Shown here: positions 1 to 10,721 of the stretch, in pieces | How positions within the stretch are numbered: the first letter of the stretch is position 1 | Layout: each line of letters starts with the position of its first letter | Assembly: GCA_919902995.1 (NCBI GenBank) | Contig: CAKKSD010000008.1 | Span: forward strand, 10,922-74,921 | Source: Thermodesulfovibrionia bacterium | GTDB taxonomy: Bacteria > Nitrospirota > Thermodesulfovibrionia > JACRGW01 | DNA length: 64,000 nt | Reading direction: 5' to 3' | The notes under the pieces: generated by a model | The model's database searches: none | Told to the model about the DNA's origin: nothing | What the model saw: the letters and a program-made list of their open reading frames with translations, nothing else | Program-made: the position numbers and the translations under genes

Positions 1-510
1 TCCCCTGAAGATGATAATCCTGTTATTGGAACGGTTTTTTACTACATAAAATTCCTTCAGGTTGCTCAGGAAATTATCAAAGACATCGGACTTCTTATAC
101 CCAATGATAACCTTCCAGGCGGAATGCGTCTCTGACGCTAATTCATAATAATAAAAGATAATCTCTTTTTCTGTCTCAGGGCATATAAAATATATTCCTG
201 ATGATAATCTTTTTTCTTCATCATCTGCTATTATGCGTACAGGTAGTTCATCCTGTGAATTAATCCCTATACCCTTTTTAGTAAATTGTATTTCCCCCGA
301 CAAAAGATAATCTTCAAGATATGTAAAAAGTTCTTCATCCTTACTCTCTGCAATAAAATGAAAATCCGATGGATTTCTCTTAAACTTATTTTTAAGAATA
401 ATGATAAATCTTTCGAATACCTCTTCTTTGACTAAAAATGACATTGGTTTTCCACCTCTTTCATATATAGGTCTTAATAATAACTCTCTCATTCTTTTTA
501 CCTCATCCAT
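1..510 (-). CDS. hypothetical protein, 3' end truncated by window edge
   Basis: Minus-strand ORF with ATG at 508-510 (MDEVKRMRELLLRPIYERGG...) that stays open to position 1. No family recognised. Confidence 0.35.
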   Translation of the reverse strand, partial: MDEVKRMRELLLRPIYERGGKPMSFLVKEEVFERFIIILKNKFKRNPSDFHFIAESKDEELFTYLEDYLLSGEIQFTKKGIGINSQDELPVRIIADDEEKRLSSGIYFICPETEKEIIFYYYELASETHSAWKVIIGYKKSDVFDNFLSNLKEFYVVKNRSNNRIIIFRG

Positions 511-877
511 TCTTTTTCATCAAATATTTTAACATGAGGTTATGACAGCAGGGTGTCAGTGGGGATTAAATAATAAAACCATAGGAAATCATCCAGTCCT
601 TGACAAAATCATTCATATCATTCATGTTCATATAATTGGCATGATGAAGAATATCAGCGATTAAGGAGTGTATAAGGGTACATAAGAATCAAGGATCCTG
701 CGGACAGGACACTCCTCTTTTTAAAGGGGATTCTTCAGGGTCTCCCCTCTATCAAGAGGGGATTAAGGGGTGTGTCTATAAGGGTATCCTGATTTTAGAA
801 GTGCAAAATTCCTTGTACCTTATTTTATGCGGAGGGAATCTAAGAGATTAGATTATTTTGGATAGTAATGAAATGCA

Positions 878-1117
878 TTATTTCAAGATATTTTCTATTT
901 CTTCATCGGTAAATCCAAATTGCCTGAAAATTCTGAGGACATATGCAGGCGAAAGCTCTTTTTCTCCCATATCTATAGGCACAACCCTCTTTTTACCCTA
1001 AAGATATCTCATATACAAACGATGGTCTCCTTTCCCTTCCCTATAAAAACTGCAATCTCCATTTTCTAAAATACGAATCAGCTCTTTTGGCTTAAGAGAA
1101 AGAATATTTTTAGGCAT
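878..1117 (-). pseudogene. hicA: HicA-family mRNA interferase toxin with in-frame amber stop
   Basis: Minus-strand translation MPKNILSLKPKELIRILENGDCSFYREGKGDHRLYMRYL*GKKRVVPIDMGEKELSPAYVLRIFRQFGFTDEEIENILK matches the HicA/YcfA pattern (KxxELIxxLExxG...GSHRxY...VPxH). TAG falls at plus-strand 998-1000. Confidence 0.55.
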
Positions 1118-1378
1118 GCACTGCCCTTAACTCATAGGTTTCCTTTGTGGGTTCTTTTTCTTCTACCGCTAAGAATTCATGAAGTTCTTTTATTGATATG
1201 GGAGCGCTATAAATATCACCTTCAGCTACATAAACATTTTCAATAGATTCAATTGCCTCTTTAAGTTTGTCTATAGCATCTTCCTTTGAAGCTCCCTAGC
1301 CTACCAATCCATTTTCCAAACATAAAGCTACCCAGTAAGTTCTACTTTTTCTTAACACAACAGTATAAAATTCCATCT
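1110..1378 (-). pseudogene. hicB: HicB-family antitoxin with in-frame amber stop
   Basis: Minus-strand translation MEFYTVVLRKSRTYWVALCLENGLVG*GASKEDAIDKLKEAIESIENVYVAEGDIY... matches the HicB N-terminal fold. TAG falls at plus 1298-1300. Its stop overlaps the hicA ATG, and an SD aggaggtag precedes the start. Confidence 0.5.
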
Positions 1379-1612
1379 CTACCTCCTATGCCTTCAAATA
1401 ACCTTCTTAAAAGAGAAACTGTAATATTACTATAATTTATAGCAATATTGAATTATAGATTAATATATGAGGATTGTAAAGATGTATTATGTAAGATGAT
1501 CCAATATCTTTATCGTATTCCTCTCAATATCTTTAAGCAGTCTGCAAAAACGACATGAAATGGGTCAAGTGGCTCGGTGATATCTAAATCTTAACAAATG
1601 GCTCTCCAAACA

Positions 1613-2128
1613 TCATGATTGGTTCTTTGCATCCGAGAGAACCTTTAGCCTCTTATGCATTATTATTTCTATGATTTCCTCGATTGCAGTTCGATCCTTG
1701 AGATCGAAATGGGAGACTTTCTTATTTATAATTTTTGGTACAGGCAGGTCTTTATTATTATCAACAATAAGGCATGGTGTATCGTCATCGGTCTCCCTGC
1801 AGAAACGGATATATTCATACCAGTAATTTTCACCCACGAGGTTTCTATCAATAACAGAGATGAAAAATGGAAGGGCGATTATATCCGGTGATGAAGGCTC
1901 ACCCCAGCAGACCTCGCAATTCAACCTCGTGGCTAATTCCCCAATCCTTGTTTCAAGATCCTTGTTTTCGAACATGCAGAAGATCGTCTTCATCCATGCC
2001 TTTTCCTTAAATTCACCGACTTCCATCCTATTTTCCCCTTCTCTAAAAGCAAGAAAAGATCCAGGATTGATTCCCATCGAAACCCCAGCCCCAATAAATC
2101 CCCTTAAAAAATCCCTCCTTTTAAGCAT
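1613..2128 (-). CDS. Tat-signal (RRDFLRG) exported protein of unknown function
   Basis: ORF track gives 171 aa. The N-terminal twin-arginine motif MLKRRDFLRGFIGAG is seen directly. The conserved island promoter/operator lies upstream at 2176-2193. Confidence 0.5.
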   Translation of the reverse strand: MLKRRDFLRGFIGAGVSMGINPGSFLAFREGENRMEVGEFKEKAWMKTIFCMFENKDLETRIGELATRLNCEVCWGEPSSPDIIALPFFISVIDRNLVGENYWYEYIRFCRETDDDTPCLIVDNNKDLPVPKIINKKVSHFDLKDRTAIEEIIEIIMHKRLKVLSDAKNQS

Positions 2129-2175
2129 AGCCCCTCCTTTTTATAAGATTTATAATTCATATTTATCATATTCCC

Positions 2176-2193
2176 CTGACAGCATTATGGCAG
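2176..2193. promoter_or_regulatory. 18-bp inverted-repeat operator-like motif CTGACAGCATTATGGCAG (copy A)
   Basis: Near-palindrome CTGACA-N6-TGNCAG. The flanking promoter region of about 75 bp is conserved with copy D. It lies upstream of minus-strand gene 1613..2128. Confidence 0.5.
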
Positions 2194-2290
2194 TATAAAG
2201 AATAATTTTCCGATAAAATATTTTTTATGGATGAATGCCAAGATAACTGGTTATTAGCTGCCTCAGATTAAAAAGAAAGACCTGACTCTC
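2176..2290. repeat. ~110-nt intergenic repeat family, copy 1 (starts with the operator motif)
   Basis: Shares ...gataactggtNattagctgNNNNagaNtaaaaagNaagNcc... with 3751-3850 and 4681-4790. Confidence 0.5.
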
Positions 2291-2456
2291 TTTGCCCTAG
2301 GAAGTCGAGGATTTTCAGATATAAGACTGGGGAATGAAGTTTGATGAGTAATACAGTAATAATCTCAGAGAAATAGGTTTTCGTACAAAAACTGCTTGAC
2401 AACAAACAAGAATCGTTGTACTTTGTAGTTATATAACTACAAAAATGGAGGATTAG

Positions 2457-2741
2457 ATGATAAAGGTAGGATTAAGAGAAGTAAACATCCATTTTTCAAA
2501 ATACATGAAAATGGTTAAAAAGGGCAGTGAGATTGTTTTGACTGATAGAGGATCACCTATCGCAGTTATTAAGCCTCTTGCTCAGAAGGAGGGTTCTCCT
2601 GAAGATAGAATCAAACTTCTGGAGGAGCAGGGTATTCTTCAAAAGGCAGTTAAGGTTAAGATTCCTATGCACAGGTTAATTAGTATTTCTGGAAAACCTG
2701 TTTCTAAGATTGTTATTGAAGGAAGGGAAAACAGGATTTAA
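2457..2741 (+). CDS. Phd/YefM-family type II antitoxin
   Basis: 94-aa ORF MIKVGLREVNIHFSKYMKMVKKGSEIVLTDRGSPIAVIKPL shows the typical Phd/YefM N-terminus. Stop overlaps the start of the downstream PIN gene (ATGA). Confidence 0.6.
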   Translation: MIKVGLREVNIHFSKYMKMVKKGSEIVLTDRGSPIAVIKPLAQKEGSPEDRIKLLEEQGILQKAVKVKIPMHRLISISGKPVSKIVIEGRENRI

Positions 2742-3178
2742 TGAAAGTCCCGTGGGGTTACTTCGATACCAGCACATATATAAAGCTCTATATCAAAGAG
2801 AATGGTTCTGAAGAGGCAAGAGAATCGGCAAGAAAAAATCGTATTCTTTCATCAGCTATACTACCAATAGAATGCTTTTCTGCTCTTTCATTGAAAAGGG
2901 ATATGGGTGATATTGTTAACGGTGAAATTGTAAAGCTGGCAACTATTATAAGAGAAGGCTTATCTTATGTTGAGCTTGTCAGGGTAACAGATGAGGTCTT
3001 AAAGAAGGCAGAGGAAATCTCTCTACTTGCTTCGGCAAGAGCCCTGGATGCCATTCACATAGCTTCGGCTTTGATCTTCAATGAGGCAACTGGGATAGAA
3101 TCTACTTTTATTACATCGGACAGTAAACAACTAAAGGTTGCTAATCATTTTGGCATGAAGACTTTATTTATCGGTTGA
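2741..3178 (+). CDS. vapC: PIN-domain ribonuclease toxin (VapC-like)
   Basis: 145 aa. YFDTS acidic motif near the N-terminus, further conserved Asp residues, and translational coupling to the antitoxin. Confidence 0.6.
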   Translation: MKVPWGYFDTSTYIKLYIKENGSEEARESARKNRILSSAILPIECFSALSLKRDMGDIVNGEIVKLATIIREGLSYVELVRVTDEVLKKAEEISLLASARALDAIHIASALIFNEATGIESTFITSDSKQLKVANHFGMKTLFIG

Positions 3179-3253
3179 TTATTTAAAAATAAATGCGGAT
3201 AAAAGTAGTAATAATTTAACAGGACATAGTCCAATTACCTTAGTGAAAATGTT

Positions 3254-3691
3254 TTAAAGTTGTCTGAGCCACGATCTCAATTCCTCAATATATTTCTCGG
3301 GTAGCCCCTGTTTTTCTGCGGCAGAAATAATCCTTTCCATATAACCATCCCAGGGAGAACCGATATCAGAATCTCCGGCAATATAGATTAATACTGAGGA
3401 TAACTTTCCATCCTGGGCCTCTATATCAACATAATCTTTCCTGTATGTCCCCCATCTAACGCCTTCATAAACATCCAGCGATTCCTCATCCCTTTTTGAA
3501 ATATTCCAGAGGATACCATAGACCACACCCGATGTATCTGGAACAACTGTGGCAACTCCATGTGTGTTAATAATAAATCGGTAACCCCGAAGGGTTGCCA
3601 TACTAACAGAAACTGCATCAGGACACCTTTCCCTTATCTGTCTATTGTCCATGTTCGAACCATATGCAAAATAGTACCTCTTACCAGACAT
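3254..3691 (-). CDS. gamma-glutamyl cyclotransferase (GGCT/AIG2-like) family protein
   Basis: YFAYGSNM motif at the predicted N-terminus (MSGKRYYFAYGSNMD...). The track ORF extends further upstream, but the internal ATG at 3689-3691 fits the family. Operator copy B lies upstream. Confidence 0.55.
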   Translation of the reverse strand: MSGKRYYFAYGSNMDNRQIRERCPDAVSVSMATLRGYRFIINTHGVATVVPDTSGVVYGILWNISKRDEESLDVYEGVRWGTYRKDYVDIEAQDGKLSSVLIYIAGDSDIGSPWDGYMERIISAAEKQGLPEKYIEELRSWLRQL

Positions 3692-3750
3692 GTTTATTCT
3701 CCACTCTACAATTATTTGCAAAACATTTAGTTCAACATTAACATATCCCC

Positions 3751-3768
3751 CTGCCAGCATTATGTCAG
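3751..3768. promoter_or_regulatory. operator-like inverted repeat CTGCCAGCATTATGTCAG (copy B)
   Basis: Same motif as copies A, D, E and F. Upstream of the GGCT-like gene and divergent from brnTA. Confidence 0.5.
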
Positions 3769-3850
3769 TTTGAAATGGATATTTCTGATTTACGAATGGA
3801 TACTGCCGGGATAACTGGTGATTAGCTGTATTGGACTAAAAAGCAAGGCC
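3751..3850. repeat. ~110-nt intergenic repeat family, copy 2
   Basis: High identity to 4681-4790 (ttacgaatggatactgccggg[a/c]taactggtgattagctgt...). Confidence 0.55.
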
Positions 3851-3993
3851 TAACCATAGCCCCTTGCCCTTGTCTCTGGAAGGATCTGCGAAGGGTTTTC
3901 CACATTGATATTGCCTTCTCATTAAAATAAAAGTATAATTGAATACGACTTTGTTTTAAGAAGGAAACAAAAAGTTTGCCATAGTATGTTTAA

Positions 3994-4302
3994 TACAAAG
4001 GGAGCATTCAACTGCCAATCATAATTGATGATATAATATGGCTGGATACAATAGTTGAAAAGATTGCATGGAAACATGGTGTGCTTCGGCACGAGGTAGA
4101 AGAAGTATTAACAGGCAATTGCAGGATATTCAAAAGAGAAAGCGGCAATATTGAAGGAGAAAATCTGTACAATGCCCTTGGCAGGGCTGAAAGCGGCAGG
4201 TATCTTTCAGTATTTTTTATCAGAAAGCTTAATAACAAGGCCCTAATTATAACTGCAAGAGATATGAACAAAAGGGAGAGGATAAGATATGAAAAAAAGT
4301 AG
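3994..4302 (+). CDS. brnT: BrnT-family ribonuclease toxin (DUF497); start codon unclear
   Basis: Open frame from 3994 encodes ...IAWKHGVLRHEVEEVLTGNCRIFKRESGNIEGENLYNALGRAESGRYLSVFFIRKLNNKALIITARDMNKRERIRYEKK, matching the BrnT core (KHGV...ITARxxxxxERxxYE). There is no in-frame ATG upstream of the conserved N-terminus. The track uses GTG at 4081. Confidence 0.5.
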   Translation, partial: YKGSIQLPIIIDDIIWLDTIVEKIAWKHGVLRHEVEEVLTGNCRIFKRESGNIEGENLYNALGRAESGRYLSVFFIRKLNNKALIITARDMNKRERIRYEKK

Positions 4303-4528
4303 GCGCAGAGAGATGACAATAACAGAGGCGAGCGACTATTTTGACGAGCACGATATTTTTGAGTTTAAAGATGTAAAAGAGGTCGCAGACATTAAATTCA
4401 GGCTGCAGAAAAAGAAATATGTGGGGCTTGATATGGAGCTTTTTAAGAAAATCAGAAGCAAGGCGAAAAAGCTCCATAAGAGCGAAGATATTCTTATTAA
4501 AGAATGGCTGATGGAGAAGGTAGGATAA
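4289..4528 (+). CDS. brnA: BrnA-family antitoxin
   Basis: 79 aa, overlaps the brnT 3' end. MTITEASDYFDEHDIFEF... is typical of BrnA (ribbon-helix-helix-like). Confidence 0.5.
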   Translation: MKKSRRREMTITEASDYFDEHDIFEFKDVKEVADIKFRLQKKKYVGLDMELFKKIRSKAKKLHKSEDILIKEWLMEKVG

Positions 4529-4680
4529 AAAACCTTATTTCCCCTGGAGCTAACCTTATCATTGGTGTAGGCTGGCCCCGCTGCTTTCCAATCCTGTTCC
4601 AATCTTTGTTAAGTCCTATAAAAAGAACACATGGATCCCTTCAATATATGAAATCAGGACAAAGGGAAGGGAATTAAAAA

Positions 4681-4790
4681 CTGCATTATGTCGGTTTGAA
4701 AATGGAGGGTTTAGATTTACGAATGGATACTGCCGGGCTAACTGGTGATTAGCTGTCTTAGACTAAAAAGCAAGACTTGACACTCCCAGC
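4681..4790. repeat. ~110-nt intergenic repeat family, copy 3 (carries only a half operator GCATTATGTCGG)
   Basis: Sequence identity with 3751-3850. Lies between brnA and the 3' end of the 68-aa gene. Confidence 0.5.
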
Positions 4791-4812
4791 TCTCGGTACT
4801 AATAATTATTGT

Positions 4813-5019
4813 CTAATTCAAAATGTATTTATTAAATTCTTCTATTGAATAATTGCCGCATTTATTGCTTCTCGCTTTAAAACAAGTTATTTCTCCTTTA
4901 TCAAAGAAGAATATATCATCGAAATCTGATTCCAAATTTTTATTTGGTTTTTTTAATGAGGATAGACTTTTATTATCACCATCAAAATCGCCTGCATTTA
5001 AGATTAATATTCTTTTCAT
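4813..5019 (-). CDS. small hypothetical protein (68 aa)
   Basis: The ORF is preceded by the same conserved promoter/operator region as gene 1613..2128 (copy D), which supports it being a real gene. Confidence 0.35.
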   Translation of the reverse strand: MKRILILNAGDFDGDNKSLSSLKKPNKNLESDFDDIFFFDKGEITCFKARSNKCGNYSIEEFNKYILN

Positions 5020-5185
5020 TTCAACCTCCTCTTTTATTGTTGTAAACAGCAGAGCCTAATAGCGAAAAGCATCAGGTCTTGAATTGTGAATCAAGCTGCC
5101 TCCTTTTTCAAATGCTAAGATCTGACGCCTCTTTTCTATTCCCTCCCTCTTTTAAAATTTATAACCCATATTTATCATATCTGCC

Positions 5186-5203
5186 CTGACAGCATTATGA
5201 CAG
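5186..5203. promoter_or_regulatory. operator-like inverted repeat CTGACAGCATTATGACAG (copy D)
   Basis: Perfect CTGACAG/CTGTCAG-type palindrome arms. The flank catatttatcatat is shared with copy A. Confidence 0.5.
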
Positions 5204-5360
5204 AGGAAATAATAATTTATTACGACAGGATTCTATTGGAAATAAGGGTGTAATGGATGATATATCTTTTAAAGAGGTTTTTCTCTGAATTGAAAAGACT
5301 GGCGGCAAAGGTTACCAGCACTAACTTTCTTATATTTAAATGCCTTACCATATGCTTCCT

Positions 5361-6674
5361 CTACTTAATGAATTTAATTGGCGTTTCTAAGATGCCTAAG
5401 CCTTCTCTGATTCTCTCCTTGATATCATCGATAAGATTATCCATTGAATCAAGTGCTTTTGCTTTTTCTGCAGGATACTCGTAGCTAAGACCTAATCCCG
5501 GGCAAACATTTATTCTATCCCGATTTGTTTTAAAGATCTGTGTGTCCAGTTCATCGTTCTTAAGAATTATTAGTTTTAATCTATCAAGTTCAGAAAGAAG
5601 TGTTCTAATTTCTTCTTTCCCATACTGATCAATTCTATTAACATTTTCTTTCCAGAAAGAATAGTAATCTTGCATAGATCCTTCAGGTGTTTTAAGCCAA
5701 ACAAGACCTAGTCGAATATGACTAAGATGAAAATTGGGGTCGCATTTCCATCCTTCATTGATAAGATGTTCAATTTTAGAATAATCTATTTTTCTATTGT
5801 AGAAAGACTTTGCTTGGCTTGATGTATCGCCAAAATACAGGCTTAACCAAAGACCTTTGAGTTTATCTTGATCAAAACCAATTTCAATTCCCACTTTTGC
5901 AATATCAGGCAGATCTGATTTGATATAATATGTCCAGCCCTTGTGATAATCCACTAAAGCTTCTTCCGTAGATACGCTCATAAGAATATTTTTTACTCTT
6001 TTTTCTATAAGTTCCCGATTGTTTTTGCAAAGGGTTAAATTATCATAAGGATTTAAGGAGGGAAAGTTTCTATTTATAAAGTCAAGAAAGTCTGAAATAA
6101 TTAACCCTTCTGCGCCTCCTACAGCATCTATCAAAAGTATTTCATTAAGCTTTTTGATTATTTCTTTCCATTCCAGTATGGCTGGGACTTTGACAAGTTG
6201 TGGTGTCGTATCCATATGTTCTTTATGTTCATCGATCCATTTCGACAGATTTGGATTAAGTTGTTCTTTCCACACATTTTCAGATTTAGGCTTGTTTTCA
6301 ATAATTAGAGTTAATTCATCTGAAAAAGATATAATGCCGTCGTATATCGCCCCACGATTAGAATTCTTTATATCGCTACTTATTTCTATTCTTTCATCAG
6401 TGATAAGAACGGATACAAATTGTCGAGCATTCTCTAAATTGCCAGTCTGTGTCCAAAACCTAATATTGGATCCCTTTATTTGAGATGTTTCTGGTATCTC
6501 TACAGAAATATATTCATTTCTCGCTAATCCTAACAAGCTGCTCCTCATGTAATCATAAAAAATAAATAACGCTAAAGGAGAATACCGCAGGACTATCAGA
6601 AAGGCTCGAGTTAATTGGTCTTCATGCCTGGCAATCTTCGAGATATAAGGTTCAAAATAGTTCAAGTAACTCAT
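5361..6674 (-). CDS. hypothetical protein with PD-(D/E)xK-like motif (putative nuclease)
   Basis: 437 aa. The segment ITDERIEISSD...GAIYDGIISFSDELTLIIENKPKS resembles D...(D/E)xK nuclease cores. Flanked by 14-bp direct repeats at 5371-5384 and 6748-6761. Confidence 0.4.
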   Translation of the reverse strand: MSYLNYFEPYISKIARHEDQLTRAFLIVLRYSPLALFIFYDYMRSSLLGLARNEYISVEIPETSQIKGSNIRFWTQTGNLENARQFVSVLITDERIEISSDIKNSNRGAIYDGIISFSDELTLIIENKPKSENVWKEQLNPNLSKWIDEHKEHMDTTPQLVKVPAILEWKEIIKKLNEILLIDAVGGAEGLIISDFLDFINRNFPSLNPYDNLTLCKNNRELIEKRVKNILMSVSTEEALVDYHKGWTYYIKSDLPDIAKVGIEIGFDQDKLKGLWLSLYFGDTSSQAKSFYNRKIDYSKIEHLINEGWKCDPNFHLSHIRLGLVWLKTPEGSMQDYYSFWKENVNRIDQYGKEEIRTLLSELDRLKLIILKNDELDTQIFKTNRDRINVCPGLGLSYEYPAEKAKALDSMDNLIDDIKERIREGLGILETPIKFIK

Positions 6675-6935
6675 GTTTACTCCCTTACCATAAGATTATG
6701 TTTATTAAGTTTCTCAACAAGACAAAGTGATGCTTCTCTATTCAAGTAATTTAATTGGCGTCAAGTCTTCTAATATCGTTTTTCATCTGCCGATTCTTCT
6801 TGATTGTTTTGCTTACTAATATTTTTAGATTTTAAATAATCTGTATTCTCTTTCAAATTATAGCCGAAAAGACTTGTGGATTCAAGTTTTGAGTAGTTTC
6901 AAGGCTATTATAAGACTCGACCTTTTTTAGATTTT

Positions 6936-7175
6936 TTAACCTTTCTCTATCTGTCTTGCCTTATTCCTAACTACCTCCAACGCCTTCTCTATATCCTCGG
7001 CATTTTCTTCTATGTAACTCAAGAAGGCGTTTTCTTCATCGCTTATAGGTTTATTTTCAAGCCTCTCATTAATCTTATTCCGTATGTCATAGGTATTTTC
7101 TTCAATTACATCGAGAAATATCTCTATTTCCTGAAATATATTTCTTGAATCGTTTTTCCTCAAGGTATCTGCCAT
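6936..7175 (-). CDS. small acidic hypothetical protein (79 aa), last gene of the nuclease operon
   Basis: ORF sits 5 nt downstream of the 346-aa gene on the same strand. Confidence 0.35.
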   Translation of the reverse strand: MADTLRKNDSRNIFQEIEIFLDVIEENTYDIRNKINERLENKPISDEENAFLSYIEENAEDIEKALEVVRNKARQIEKG

Positions 7176-7180
7176 ATTTT

Positions 7181-8221
7181 TTATTCCAGCACCTTTTTAA
7201 GCTCTTCAAGAAGGGTATTGGATTCTTCTTTGCTGAGGTAAGGAACCTTTATGGTTCTGTCCCAGAAAAATGATTTCCCTAATATTGATGATACATGGCT
7301 GAAAGGCAAGTACTTTTTGATGCCTTCAATCCTGCTGGGTATAGGTGCAAGAAATCTTACATCGCGGTATTTTTCTTCGTTAGCGTCATTATTCTTTGAT
7401 TGACCAATAACCTCTGCAGCAGCAATAATGCCGATCCATTTATGTGAATAAAATACTTTATCTTTGGGATGCAGATAATCCACATAATATCTGGCGTCTC
7501 CATAGGCAGAAACACGCTTATTCTCCAGCATATTCCAGATGGCATTTTCATCGTAACTTCGGTTTGTATCGAAAAGAACCCCTTTTATATCTCCAGGATT
7601 TCTATGTTTATCATAGGGTAAAGAGAAGAACTCGAAGTAATATTGGCCGGAAATACTGTAAACCCTATAAGGGATAAAATCCATTGAGATTCCCTGATGT
7701 TTCCAGTAATCAATAGCCTCAATCAGTTTTTCATCAGCTGCACTGCCAACAATCCATATATGCTGTTTCTGATTGAACTCATTGGGTAGTAGTTCTCTTT
7801 CGAGTTGAAAGGCTTCCAGATGGGCTTTCTGGAGTTCCTGACCGGTACTCTTCGAATATAACTTGAACTTTTCATTGAGTTCATTAAATGTCCATTGTCC
7901 AGCCTCCTGAGTATAACGAAGAGCCTGCTCAACAGCATTTCCACCAGCCTTAGATAGTTTAAGTTCAAAGATTATCAGATCACCTTTTTTGTTCAATGCA
8001 TATATATCCGCCACAGGTTGACCCCCTCTTTCTCTAAATATCGGCATTAATGGAACCTCTTCAAAAAGGATGTTAAATAAATTGTCTGTCAGTAATTTCT
8101 CTAAGTCCTCTTCTTTTTTCTGAAATACAGAAAAATCATAGAAAGGGATTGCATCTAATGCCTGTGGCAGCCCTTTTTCGATCGCAAACTTATAAAGCAT
8201 TTTAGCTTCCTCCTTCTTCAT
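7181..8221 (-). CDS. hypothetical protein with N-terminal PD-(D/E)xK-like motif
   Basis: 346 aa. PVADIYALNKKGDLIIFELKLSKAGGNAVEQALRY resembles a restriction-endonuclease-like core (D..D/E-L-K). Overlaps the upstream Cas4-like gene. Confidence 0.45.
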   Translation of the reverse strand: MKKEEAKMLYKFAIEKGLPQALDAIPFYDFSVFQKKEEDLEKLLTDNLFNILFEEVPLMPIFRERGGQPVADIYALNKKGDLIIFELKLSKAGGNAVEQALRYTQEAGQWTFNELNEKFKLYSKSTGQELQKAHLEAFQLERELLPNEFNQKQHIWIVGSAADEKLIEAIDYWKHQGISMDFIPYRVYSISGQYYFEFFSLPYDKHRNPGDIKGVLFDTNRSYDENAIWNMLENKRVSAYGDARYYVDYLHPKDKVFYSHKWIGIIAAAEVIGQSKNNDANEEKYRDVRFLAPIPSRIEGIKKYLPFSHVSSILGKSFFWDRTIKVPYLSKEESNTLLEELKKVLE

Positions 8222-9398
8222 TTAAAGTTCGTATATATATCTTTATCTCCTTATCACGTCGGGAAAAGTTAATGACCTTCATAATGATGTCTTTGTCCCA
8301 TGCTGATTCTGATAATATTTTCTCTAACTTATCTGTGCTTAAATTCGAGACTTCCTCCCATTTCCCTGCCTTCTTTATCAGTTCTTCAAGTTCAGCCCTT
8401 TCAGGTTCGCTTTTTGATGGAAACTTTAATGCATCCTTTTCGCTTATCTTCAGGATACAATCACTGCCCCTCAGTTGTGTTAAGCCTTCTTTATGGGCAT
8501 AGGAGATTATCTTCTCCCTCAGAACTTCAAGCTCATCACTAAATAATTTAACTTGTGCCTTTAATTCAACATAACGGTTTGCAAGGCTTACCCCATCGTC
8601 TTTAAGAAACTCTTCTGCTGGCAGGGTTTCCGTCTTTACGATATGTTTCTGGAATGGGCAGTATTCAGGAAAATCGCAGTATTCACATAGACTATTTTCT
8701 TTTGGCTTGAATTCAGTATCTGTCTTTATGGTCTCAATAAGTTCGACTGTCTTCTCCTCTGTTTCCTCAAGTTCTTCCTCTGTCTTCTCAATAGTGAATT
8801 CTTTATCAAATCTAAGATAGTGCCAGATGAGTTTTACCTTTTCGGCATCACGGTAATTCTGTTTGAGCCCTATCTGGTAGAGTGCAAGCTGTCTGTCGTT
8901 CTCGAGCCACTCATCGTGTGGCAGGTTTCTGGAGGTCTTGTAGTCATGAATCTCGTATATCTCACCATTACTAATATCAAGCCTGTCTATATACCCCCTG
9001 AAATTATATTTATCTTTGAGTTTAAAGGATAAATGTTTTTCTGTTGCAATAGTTCTTATATTGGTAAATGGCTGATAGCGTTTATAATAGTCCCTGATTA
9101 ACCTTTCACCTGTGTCATAGTAGTTCTCTTCAGAAATACCTTCTTTTCTGATAAGTATGTTCTGGTTCCAGTTCTTCGTCCACTCGGATTTATAGAAACT
9201 GAGGAGGTCATCAAGAGGATTTAATTTTGAAAGGATTAGGTCTTCATGGAGTTTTGCGAGGGTCTCATGAACCCTGATTCCAAGAAAAGCCTCTACACCT
9301 TCTATTTCCTCTACATCAACCTTATCTATATACTTAAGCTTGAACTTAAGGGGACAGGTTTCATAAGTAGAAATCATGCTATTTGAATATACTGGCAT
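8202..9398 (-). CDS. PD-(D/E)xK nuclease superfamily protein, RecB/Cas4-like with C-terminal Cys cluster
   Basis: N-terminal YETCPLKFKLKYI (RecB-family motif I), GYIDRLDISNGEIYEIHDYKTS (D..E.K core) and CEYCDFPEYCP (Cas4/AddB-type Fe-S Cys cluster). 398 aa with an extra C-terminal domain. Confidence 0.6.
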   Translation of the reverse strand: MPVYSNSMISTYETCPLKFKLKYIDKVDVEEIEGVEAFLGIRVHETLAKLHEDLILSKLNPLDDLLSFYKSEWTKNWNQNILIRKEGISEENYYDTGERLIRDYYKRYQPFTNIRTIATEKHLSFKLKDKYNFRGYIDRLDISNGEIYEIHDYKTSRNLPHDEWLENDRQLALYQIGLKQNYRDAEKVKLIWHYLRFDKEFTIEKTEEELEETEEKTVELIETIKTDTEFKPKENSLCEYCDFPEYCPFQKHIVKTETLPAEEFLKDDGVSLANRYVELKAQVKLFSDELEVLREKIISYAHKEGLTQLRGSDCILKISEKDALKFPSKSEPERAELEELIKKAGKWEEVSNLSTDKLEKILSESAWDKDIIMKVINFSRRDKEIKIYIRTLNEEGGS

Positions 9399-9450
9399 AT
9401 TATTTAGCCTCCTATATGTTTAAGTCTTGTTAGATTATATATAACTCTTA

Positions 9451-9467
9451 TGACAGCAGTATGTCAG
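9451..9467. promoter_or_regulatory. operator-like inverted repeat TGACAGCAGTATGTCAG (copy E) upstream of the nuclease operon
   Basis: Same motif family. 53 nt upstream of the start of the Cas4-like gene. Confidence 0.5.
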
Positions 9468-9518
9468 AAATAAATAGCCTGCTGAAAAAGTCTCCTTTTA
9501 TTATAGAGTCGTCTTGTT

Positions 9519-9588
9519 TGTCATTCCGCACTTGATGCGGAATCCAGTCTTTTGTTTATTTCTGGATTCCTGTTTCCACGGGAATGAC
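9519..9588. repeat. hairpin-rich intergenic element (gtcattccgcacttgatgcggaatcc ... ggattcc...gggaatgac)
   Basis: Nested inverted repeats. The track's spurious ORF 9514..9717 translates it (VIPHLMRNP). Positioned as a likely terminator downstream of the WYL gene. Confidence 0.4.
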
Positions 9589-9623
9589 TACTTTTTTAAA
9601 GAAATGCGAGTTGTTAAACAAGC

Positions 9624-10604
9624 TCAGTGTCCCTTTAATGCATCACCGAGTTCCCTTTTAACCTGTTTCCTGAGCCATTGGGGCTTAATTACTTCAACAT
9701 CTGGAATCCATGAATAGATCCATCTCTTGATTTCATCCACACCGGCAACAGTGAATGAGAGTTCCACATCCCCTGAAGGAAGGATATTCCTTTTTTCTGA
9801 GGGATGCCACTTTTCTCTCCTTGTGATATACTCGGCTACCTTCTTGGAAAACCTCAGGGTGACATCAACTGCATCATCCTCGTATATCCCCCAGCTCTGA
9901 GAGAGATGATCTTCAATATCAAATTCGCCACGAAAATAATGCCACCTCTCTTTTATGTCTTTAATCCTGTCAATATCAAAATGCCTTAACCTGTTCCTTA
10001 AATGACAGTACCCTATCAGAGTCCATGTCCCCTGATAGAATACCAGTCCGTAAGGGTCTACTTCCCTCTTTGTGACCTCTTTGCTATGGAGGGCTTTATA
10101 GATAATTTCGATCGAGCGTTTCTCTTTAATACAGTCTGAGATAATATTAAAATAGTTATTTAATCTCTCGGTCATGATAGCGTCAGGGATCTTTACGACA
10201 ATAGGAACCCTTGAGGGGAATTTGGTTATATTCGTCATATTAGTTATTAACCTCTTGAAATCTTCCTCAAAGGGCTTACCGAGATGTGAGACCGCCTCAC
10301 CCATTGTGAGGAGCAGCAGAAGTTCTCTATCAGAGAGGGCTGTTTTCTTTATGCGGTCAGTATTCACAAATCTATACCCCTTTCTCTCCTTGTCAAACTC
10401 TATAGTATCTATCATATTTATTATCTCAAGATACCTGTAAACAGTCCTTTCCTTTACTTCGAATTCCTCAGAAAGATATCCTACTGATGGGTATTTGTTC
10501 TGTGCAATCAGGGTGTAGGCTTTAAGGATATTGATAACCTTCTCTGATATGCCAGCAGGTTTGGATTTCTTATGTTTAAGGTTTTTAAAGGGAGGCTTTT
10601 TCAT
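9624..10604 (-). CDS. WYL-domain transcriptional regulator (BrxR/CapW-like, HTH + WYL)
   Basis: 326 aa. N-terminal wHTH (YLSEEFEVKERTVYRYLEII), central WYL-type segment (DPYGLVFYQGTWTLIGYCHLRNRLRHFDIDRI) and a C-terminal domain. Operator copy F lies upstream. Confidence 0.65.
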   Translation of the reverse strand: MKKPPFKNLKHKKSKPAGISEKVINILKAYTLIAQNKYPSVGYLSEEFEVKERTVYRYLEIINMIDTIEFDKERKGYRFVNTDRIKKTALSDRELLLLLTMGEAVSHLGKPFEEDFKRLITNMTNITKFPSRVPIVVKIPDAIMTERLNNYFNIISDCIKEKRSIEIIYKALHSKEVTKREVDPYGLVFYQGTWTLIGYCHLRNRLRHFDIDRIKDIKERWHYFRGEFDIEDHLSQSWGIYEDDAVDVTLRFSKKVAEYITRREKWHPSEKRNILPSGDVELSFTVAGVDEIKRWIYSWIPDVEVIKPQWLRKQVKRELGDALKGH

Positions 10605-10703
10605 GTTTTATCTTATCTGATTATTACCCTGTATTCCACTCCGAATAATTACCTTATTGACATAATGAAAAGGGCTTTAATATTTTAATTATAGCATATT
10701 TAA

Positions 10704-10721
10704 CTGACAGCACTATGACAG
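10704..10721. promoter_or_regulatory. operator-like inverted repeat CTGACAGCACTATGACAG (copy F) upstream of the WYL regulator gene
   Basis: Palindromic arms CTGACAG/CTGTCAG, about 85 nt upstream of the regulator start. Consistent with an autoregulatory site. Confidence 0.5.

Follow-up and report, generated by a model that had tools for sequence, protein, structure and literature searches.

The DNA analyzed here is a stretch of 64,000 nucleotides from a Thermodesulfovibrionia bacterium (assembly GCA_919902995.1, contig CAKKSD010000008.1, positions 10,922 to 74,921), referred to below as the window. Its first part belongs to an accessory gene island in which an 18-bp motif, CTGnCATAnTGCTGnCAK in gene orientation, recurs at six promoters, including that of a gene for a regulator with winged helix-turn-helix (wHTH), WYL and WCX domains. 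That this motif is the predicted binding site of the regulator and defines an island-wide regulon is well supported. Binding, the direction of regulation and the ligand are predictions from sequence. For the direction, promoter geometry and the sequence affinity of the protein make activation the favored reading, with some confidence.

The first-pass annotation of this DNA had reported near-identical sites at five minus-strand promoters. When its pattern was searched with up to three mismatches allowed, five matches were returned (sites 1 to 5 in Table 1); shuffled sequence gave 0.07 matches on average, and none of 100 shuffles reached five. Four of the five start positions were correct, and the site placed at 9451 begins at 9450. 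A sixth full site, missed in that annotation, lies at 542–559 and adds an AAA ATPase gene to the targets. It was scored at 26.5 bits in a position weight matrix (PWM) scan and is also visible on reading the sequence. The PWM was built from the six full sites, which score 26.5 to 30.6 bits, and the runner-up in the 64-kb window scores 11.8 bits. All sites fall within positions 1–10721, with no PWM site in the remaining ∼53 kb (10722–64000). Taken across the window and two contigs of the same strain (L081 and L082), the island measures ∼12.5 kb and has six sites; no additional site is present on those contigs before the island end at PgpA.

All six full sites are intergenic and have a single orientation, which is that of the downstream minus-strand gene. 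The proposed location of 40 to 90 nt upstream of start codons holds for sites 2, 4 and 5 (51, 59 and 47 nt) and fails for sites 3 and 1 (166 and 99 nt); the corresponding gap at site 6 is 49 nt. The site upstream of the regulator's own gene was confirmed at 10704–10721, and autoregulation is predicted from its position. In the window the arms are CTGnCA and TGnCAG, with the central arm base free. The motif had been described as an inverted repeat, which is correct for the cross-genome consensus CTGACA-N6-TGTCAG, a perfect palindrome, but only three of the six window sites are true palindromes. Similarly, the half-site noted at 4681 does exist as a partial copy, but it is a truncated relic made of the distal arm and the spacer, and no −10 box follows it.

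For description of the promoters, the motif was numbered 1 to 18, such that a −10 box at a spacing of ten nucleotides (N10) occupies positions 29 to 34. These positions read TATAAT at sites 1 and 2, TAAAAT at site 6, TAATGT at site 4 and TAAATA at site 5. Site 3 has one extra base, with ATAAAT at positions 29 to 34 and TAAATA one base later. TAnnnT is present at N10 in four of the six window sites. In all six promoters the motif comes before the −10 box and occupies −40 to −23, with its promoter-proximal GTC 15 nt upstream of the −10 box. On reading the sequence at a spacer of 16 to 18 nt, no −35 box was found: motif positions 5 to 12 are CATAnTGC, with no more than two of six matches to TTGACA.

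Homologues of the regulator are numerous (>200 at 53–70% identity) and come mostly from metagenome-assembled genomes of Nitrospirota and Syntrophorhabdia; the closest locus in the species-representative genome collection is only 61% identical. With the family alignment, 80 WYL loci were retrieved, and motif density was determined over 40 homologous loci. In these, nTGnCA-N6-TGnCAn occurs at 0.95 per kb beside the WYL gene versus 0.046 per kb elsewhere (∼21-fold), and a site is adjacent to the WYL gene in 23 of the 40. Across the 80 loci the motif usually stands right after the WYL stop codon and on the same strand, like site 2. At Paenibacillus loci, where the WYL protein is ∼25% identical, CTGACATAATGCTGTCAG is found at the same place. 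Five of the Paenibacillus loci (L045, L053, L072, L079 and L080) carry a longer palindrome, AAACGCTA-CTGACA-N6-TGTCAG-TAGCGTTT, with the −10 box at N11; in the same five the downstream gene encodes a DinB_2 protein, as for mycobacterial SiwR (see below).

Two of the related loci, L007 and L029, resemble the window in having several sites, three or four at each locus. At L007 the motif precedes an AAA ATPase homologue (31% identity) and another Tat-signal protein. Homology of the mature Tat-signal proteins of the window and L007 is not claimed, as the match consists of the 17-aa signal peptide alone. The sites of this Nitrospirota locus (5084–5101, 6390–6407 and 7760–7777) all have the form CTGCCA-N6-TGGCAG, in which the central base is changed symmetrically in both arms, and a truncated WYL paralogue follows the first of them. 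Cargo varies greatly from one related locus to the next. That of closer relatives includes a TIR protein, ARPP-1 and AAA ATPases, and when the island proteins were compared with the 80 WYL loci by tblastn, the AAA ATPase alone recurred. The nuclease operon was considered as conserved cargo and rejected, having shown no recurrence in the same comparison.

The motif was also scanned blind to genes, using the pattern CTGACATANTGYTGTCA. At least 120 sites were obtained in metagenome contigs, and 93 sites in viral contigs, which were used as a negative control; the metagenome counts given here are those among the matches listed. An open reading frame (ORF) matching the WYL profile was present at 36 of 120 metagenome loci, within 400 nt at 26 of them, and at none of the 93 viral loci. 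Note that, because many contigs are short, the metagenome count is a lower bound. TAnnnT was found at N10, N11 and N12 in 49, 17 and 7 of 119 metagenome sites, respectively, and in ∼1 to 7 sites at each other offset. In the viral control it was found in 0 of 92 sites at N10 to N12 and in a few at other offsets. Both these counts and the 23 of 40 loci with an adjacent site bear out the earlier proposal of a motif that is linked to the WYL regulator and placed at the promoters of otherwise unrelated genes.

Genes following the metagenome sites encode glyoxalase/bleomycin-resistance proteins (19) and DinB proteins (16); the other families are GyrI-like proteins, HhH-GPD glycosylases, a UvrA paralogue, ARPP-1 and the WYL protein itself. 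At 16 metagenome sites (within L087–L206), and at none in the viral control, the sequence at N10 or N11 is TAnnTTTG. TAnnTTTG is the Bacteroidota −7 promoter element, and the same spacing rule seems to hold with a different housekeeping sigma factor. Among the viral matches (L207–L299), 77 of 93 are a single k-mer, CTGACATAATGCTGTCAC, without a −10 box or WYL gene nearby. Probably this k-mer belongs to a segment conserved within one phage group and has no connection with the regulon.

The regulator matches the Pfam families HTH_11 (1.4e-5), WYL (4e-22) and WCX (4.4e-17). When the family profile was compared with solved structures, DriD (3e-19, over WYL and WCX) and PafBC (4e-17) were matched far better than CapW (4e-8) and BrxR (1e-6), which were matched by the WYL domain alone. 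A phmmer search of the PDB with the wHTH region alone found no WYL protein. In the HMMER alignment, the residues Y168, S172, R178, R204 and W206, through which DriD contacts single-stranded DNA (ssDNA), correspond to Y169, S174, R180, R207 and F209. Y169, R180, R207 and F209 are invariant or nearly so in the family, and S174 is absent from the listed conserved positions. At the position of the RWHVR signature of CapW and BrxR the window protein reads GTWTLIGYC (WTL), and RWHVR is not present in it. All motif-linked WYL proteins examined share the recognition helix R53-T-x-Y-R57. The R-x3-R spacing of R53 and R57 is also that of R46 and R50 in PafB, by which the two guanines of GTC are read (PMC8635444). 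As R53-T-x-Y-R57 is common in HTH_11 proteins, it is weak evidence. The free central arm base, changed to CTGCCA...TGGCAG at all three L007 sites, fits readout of the flanking G and C only.

Four characterized WYL systems were used for comparison. WYL activators of the PafBC, DriD, SiwR and DdaA type have their site over the −26/−35 region, at a set distance from a canonical −10 box, in promoters where no −35 hexamer is recognizable, and the window promoters have this layout. PafBC of mycobacteria has the in vivo motif tGTCgg(N10)tA(N3)T, whose 5′ part is located at −23 to −28 in promoters without a −35 box (PMC8635444). TGTCAG(N10)TAnnnT of the window has the same core and spacing, with GTC 15 nt before the −10 box, and the R-x3-R recognition helix, the −23 to −28 element and the missing −35 box are likewise shared. 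PafBC, which acts by sigma adaptation, differs in being a heterodimer, in having a non-palindromic motif and in being unable to bind DNA without RNA polymerase. In the window a distal half-site completes the dyad, and a homodimer with both wHTH domains on DNA is therefore implied.

DriD of Caulobacter crescentus is a homodimeric activator of wHTH-3HB-WYL-WCX architecture (3HB, three-helix bundle) and binds ATACGAC(N7)GTCGTAT (PMC10853764). Its target promoters have no −35 box; the sites overlap the place where one would be and keep a constant distance to the −10 box (PMC13004042). In a published didA variant with an optimized −35 box, the hexamer occupies the center of the DriD site. If the spacer is taken as 17 nt, the GTC of DriD nearer to the −10 box would lie 15 nt before it, as in the window. 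DriD is also the best solved-structure match, with a similar domain order and nearly the same length (327 aa versus 326 aa here); both palindromes have GAC/GTC cores (CGAC-N7-GTCG versus TGAC-N8-GTCA) and are centered near −32, and both proteins have a site at their own promoter. The two differ in half-site sequence and, by 1 bp, in spacing, and there is no detectable sequence match in the wHTH region; of the ssDNA contacts of DriD that were compared, only about half are conserved. DriD controls the DNA-damage genes didA, recA, recJ and bapE, whereas the cargo here is a mobile, defence-like island.

SiwR of Mycobacterium smegmatis has DinB-like cargo and an imperfect palindrome of ∼19 bp ahead of the −10 box, and for it the −26 region is essential (PMC10693628). 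The order of WYL gene, short spacer with palindrome and then cargo is the same as here, SiwR is a homodimeric activator, and DinB or glyoxalase genes, as in its neighborhood, are most of the motif-linked cargo in the listed metagenome matches. Its −26 triplet is GGA and not GTC, and it has one target operon and not six. BrxR and CapW, the fourth comparison, are autoregulated wHTH-WYL-WCX dimers with ∼20-bp palindromes, placed at the head of variable defence islands, features in which the window protein may resemble them; CapW also senses ssDNA. They are shorter (∼290–300 aa), carry RWHVR where the WYL motif would be (PMC11662680), and are much less similar in sequence to the window protein. 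The BrxR operator is located downstream of the −10 box (PMC9122601), unlike all six sites here.

From these comparisons the following mechanism is proposed. A signal, probably ssDNA arising from DNA damage or phage attack, would bind the WYL domain. A dimer of the regulator would dock on the 18-bp motif at −40 to −23, where its two wHTH domains would read the G and the C in both TGnCA arms. The motif, the −10 box at N10 and the lack of a −35 box would together make a regulator-dependent promoter, at which the bound dimer would help housekeeping RNA polymerase to start, in the manner of PafBC, DriD and SiwR. Six such promoters would thereby join the regulator's own gene, the nuclease/PDC-S11-like operon, the 68-aa ORF and the genes for the GGACT-like protein, the Tat-signal protein and the AAA ATPase into one regulon. 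The first-pass annotation had instead likened the regulator to repressors of the BrxR/CapW type. We prefer an activator because the site precedes the −10 box with a fixed gap of 10 nt, there is no −35 box, RWHVR is missing, and the protein is closer to DriD and PafBC than to CapW and BrxR.

Several observations weigh against activation. TGn directly precedes the −10 box in five of the six window promoters, and such an extended −10 might allow them to fire without an activator, in which case the bound protein would repress. At sites 3 and 5, where a proper TAnnnT is missing at N10, the sequence could instead be taken for CTGnCA(−35)-N17/18-TATGAT, that is, for a moderate sigma-70 promoter lying under an operator. 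A generic promoter scan took the distal arm as a −35 box at sites 3, 4 and 5, with TATGAT or TATGTT 17 to 18 nt further on; other genomes do not conserve this −35/−10 alternative. Equally, a protein bound over the −35 region could keep RNA polymerase out. The cargo looks like that which is under WYL repressors in published cases. As for the protein, the equivalents of two further ssDNA contacts of DriD, R189 and R207, are not conserved. An AlphaFold2 model from 25 sequences has a mean pLDDT of 59.9, and its three helices at 92–108, 110–124 and 146–160 are below 50; it was too poor for a fold search and does not confirm a three-helix bundle between the wHTH and WYL domains of the kind seen in the homodimeric DriD subclass.

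The strongest alternative, which we nevertheless regard as unlikely, keeps the same protein and the same sites and makes the protein a repressor of the BrxR/CapW type, occupying −40 to −23 in unstressed cells and released once its WYL domain has bound a ligand. BrxR (PMC9122601) and CapW (PMC11662680), which are the WYL regulators of defence systems characterized to date, are repressors, and the cargo here and in relatives is defence-like (the PDC-S11-like protein, the Cas4-like nuclease, TIR proteins and AAA ATPases). The extended −10 boxes of five promoters could also give transcription that needs no activator, and sites 3 and 5 can be read as a −35/−10 pair under the operator. The upstream position of the operator weakens membership of the BrxR/CapW type, although a protein at −40 to −23 could still block polymerase. 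A repressor, however, needs no fixed N10 spacing, yet this spacing is kept across phyla, and the geometry, without a −35 box, is identical to that of PafBC and DriD. The operator position of BrxR, WTL in place of RWHVR and the profile scores point the same way. Finally, most motif-linked cargo elsewhere (DinB, glyoxalase, AlkA-like and UvrA-like) is of the kind associated with the activator SiwR.

It is very improbable that the motif is read by another factor, either an alternative sigma factor or a transcription factor encoded elsewhere. The distal arm CTGACA does resemble a −35 hexamer, but at 22 nt from the conserved −10 box it is too far away for recognition of the sigma-70 type. By family search, the WYL regulator is the only non-antitoxin DNA-binding protein in the island, and the co-occurrence of motif and WYL genes is far above background and, in the viral control, zero.

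The remaining alternatives concern the movement of DNA segments within the island. The first-pass annotation had noted ∼75 bp of promoter flank common to two copies of the motif. This flank is real and is common to sites 3 and 5 (84 bp, ∼85% identical), and its origin in a duplicated promoter had been missed. In a related strain (L083) the 437/440-aa gene is joined directly to one promoter and the Tat-signal gene. The window holds 3.07 kb more than L083 (∼2210–5136 versus L083 1952–2035), comprising the 68-aa ORF, the BrnT/BrnA pair, the GGACT-like gene and the Phd/PIN pair. Sites 3 and 5 share their flank because the two 84-bp promoter copies form the ends of this block. As copies of one promoter, these two of the six sites are therefore not independent. 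Together these findings suggest that cassettes are gained or lost by recombination between shared promoters. A decayed copy of the Tat-signal gene after site 3 was considered and dropped, as similarity stops near the ribosome-binding site.

We give very little weight to the notion that the palindrome serves mainly as a recombination site for cassette insertion or exchange, with its promoter position secondary. The block missing from L083 has promoter copies at its ends, the copy at 4681 is broken inside the motif, and cargo varies widely among related loci, which are the points in its favor. Repeats of 84 bp at the ends of an indel are, however, expected from ordinary homologous recombination, and searches of ORFs and families found no integrase or recombinase gene in the island. 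A recombination site would also leave the fixed −10 spacing and the link to WYL genes unexplained. That the motif has no regulatory binding role and merely hitch-hikes on promoter segments duplicated within the island is scarcely credible and already contradicted: sites 3 and 5 do lie in the 84-bp duplication, and sites 4 and 5 and the relic share repeat D1, but sites 1, 2 and 6 share with other sites just the 18-mer and the −10 box, and the same motif and spacing are found beside WYL genes in Nitrospirota, Syntrophorhabdia, Paenibacillus and many metagenome contigs.

Coordinates of all features are collected in Table 1. The cut gene at the window edge encodes a 421-aa AAA ATPase, as seen in the same-strain contigs L081 and L082, in which one more toxin-antitoxin pair and then PgpA follow. 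The genes between 5361 and 9398 are a putative single operon under site 2, as judged from spacing only. The sole defence-candidate family match in the island is that of the 346-aa protein, beside the Cas4-like nuclease; no established defence system was recognized in a defence-family search. A decayed hicB/hicA-like toxin-antitoxin pair (884–1376, minus strand), with one in-frame stop per ORF, is located between the Tat-signal and AAA ATPase genes. Phd/PIN and BrnT/BrnA-like pairs (2457–3178 and 4029–4528, plus strand) are interleaved with the motif-driven genes of the other strand, and neither plus-strand pair has the motif.

Table 1. Motif sites, genes and repeats of the island, in window coordinates.
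Feature	Coordinates	Strand	Description
Site 1	10704..10721	-	CTGTCATAGTGCTGTCAG; 99 nt upstream of WYL regulator start codon
-10 box of site 1	10688..10693	-	TATAAT at N10, preceded by TGC (extended -10); read from sequence
Site 2	9450..9467	-	CTGACATACTGCTGTCAT; 51 nt upstream of nuclease gene; TATAAT at 9434-9439 (N10)
Site 3	5186..5203	-	CTGTCATAATGCTGTCAG; 166 nt upstream of 68-aa ORF; weak -10 box, ATAAAT at N10 or TAAATA at N11
Site 4	3751..3768	-	CTGACATAATGCTGGCAG; 59 nt upstream of GGACT/AIG2-like gene; TGT-TAATGT at N10
Site 5	2176..2193	-	CTGCCATAATGCTGTCAG; 47 nt upstream of Tat-signal protein; TAAATA at N10
Site 6	542..559	-	CTGACACCCTGCTGTCAT; 49 nt upstream of AAA ATPase start at 492; TGT-TAAAAT, 526-531 (N10)
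Truncated relic	4681..4694	-	CCGACATAATGCAG; distal arm and spacer only; preceded by repeat D1c
wHTH-WYL-WCX regulator, 326 aa	9624..10604	-	Pfam HTH_11, WYL, WCX
PD-(D/E)XK Cas4-like nuclease	8202-9398	-	Family-profile search
346-aa protein	7181-8221	-	N-terminal half matches PADLOC candidate PDC-S11 (1.6e-18)
79-aa ORF	6936-7175	-	No assigned family (ORF list, family search)
437-aa protein	5361-6674	-	No assigned family (ORF list, family search)
68-aa ORF	4813-5019	-	ORF list
GGACT/AIG2-like gene	3254-3691	-	Family-profile search
Tat-signal protein, 171 aa	1613-2128	-	ORF list; no Pfam family found
AAA ATPase gene, 5′ part	1..492	-	Cut by window edge; full length 421 aa
Repeat D1a	2205-2286		D1 copies 62-87% identical
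Repeat D1b	3773-3854		As above
Repeat D1c	4700-4781		As above

Repeat D1 measures ∼100 nt with its flanks and contains, on the minus strand, a hairpin with a T-run that resembles a terminator. In gene orientation it stands just upstream of site 5 (D1a), site 4 (D1b) and the relic (D1c). A structured RNA was considered for D1 and rejected, as the three copies showed no significant fold on either strand (z-scores of −0.8 to +0.8). The motif and D1 are not a known RNA, since an Rfam scan of the whole window gave zero matches, and no copy of D1 was found in related loci. Two REP-like (repetitive extragenic palindromic) hairpins, ATTCCGCACTTGATGCGGAAT and ATTCCTGTTTCCACGGGAAT, lie at 9523–9585 between the WYL stop codon and site 2; similar elements, GTCATTCCCGC, are present in L028 and L031.

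WYL regulators that are homodimers and use a dyad site in the −26/−35 region are a known kind. Full-text searches of the literature, one for the motif together with WYL and one for a regulon of this type, found no description, an absence that is no proof of novelty. WYL regulators are common and few have a known DNA site, and a specific candidate operator sequence is offered here. The wider interest lies in the conservation of motif and spacing across phyla and in an activator-type WYL protein apparently wired to an accessory island with six promoters, a candidate case of such a protein controlling mobile, defence-like genes. Should this be confirmed, activation of the PafBC/DriD type would reach well beyond Actinobacteria and Alphaproteobacteria and would extend to accessory gene islands. 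The promoter arrangement is present in Nitrospirota, Syntrophorhabdia and Paenibacillus, and probably also in Bacteroidota, as judged by the TAnnTTTG boxes at the same spacing. The rule that GTC precedes the −10 box by 15 nt, with no −35 box, links this regulator family to PafBC and DriD and could help to predict the WYL regulons of bacteria not in culture.

Tentatively, and as a possibility that we would not yet call likely, CTGACA-N6-TGTCAG with the −10 box at N10 may be a cross-phylum promoter class served by one large clade of homodimeric WYL activators. Its target in most lineages would be a single neighboring gene of the genotoxin response (DinB, glyoxalase, AlkA-like or UvrA-like). In the Nitrospirota lineage of the window it would have become a plug-in standard, such that horizontally acquired cassettes bring or gain the same promoter and the whole defence-like island fires on one ssDNA signal. 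Shared promoters would also serve as homology for the gain and loss of cassettes (compare the 84-bp repeats around the 3-kb indel relative to L083).

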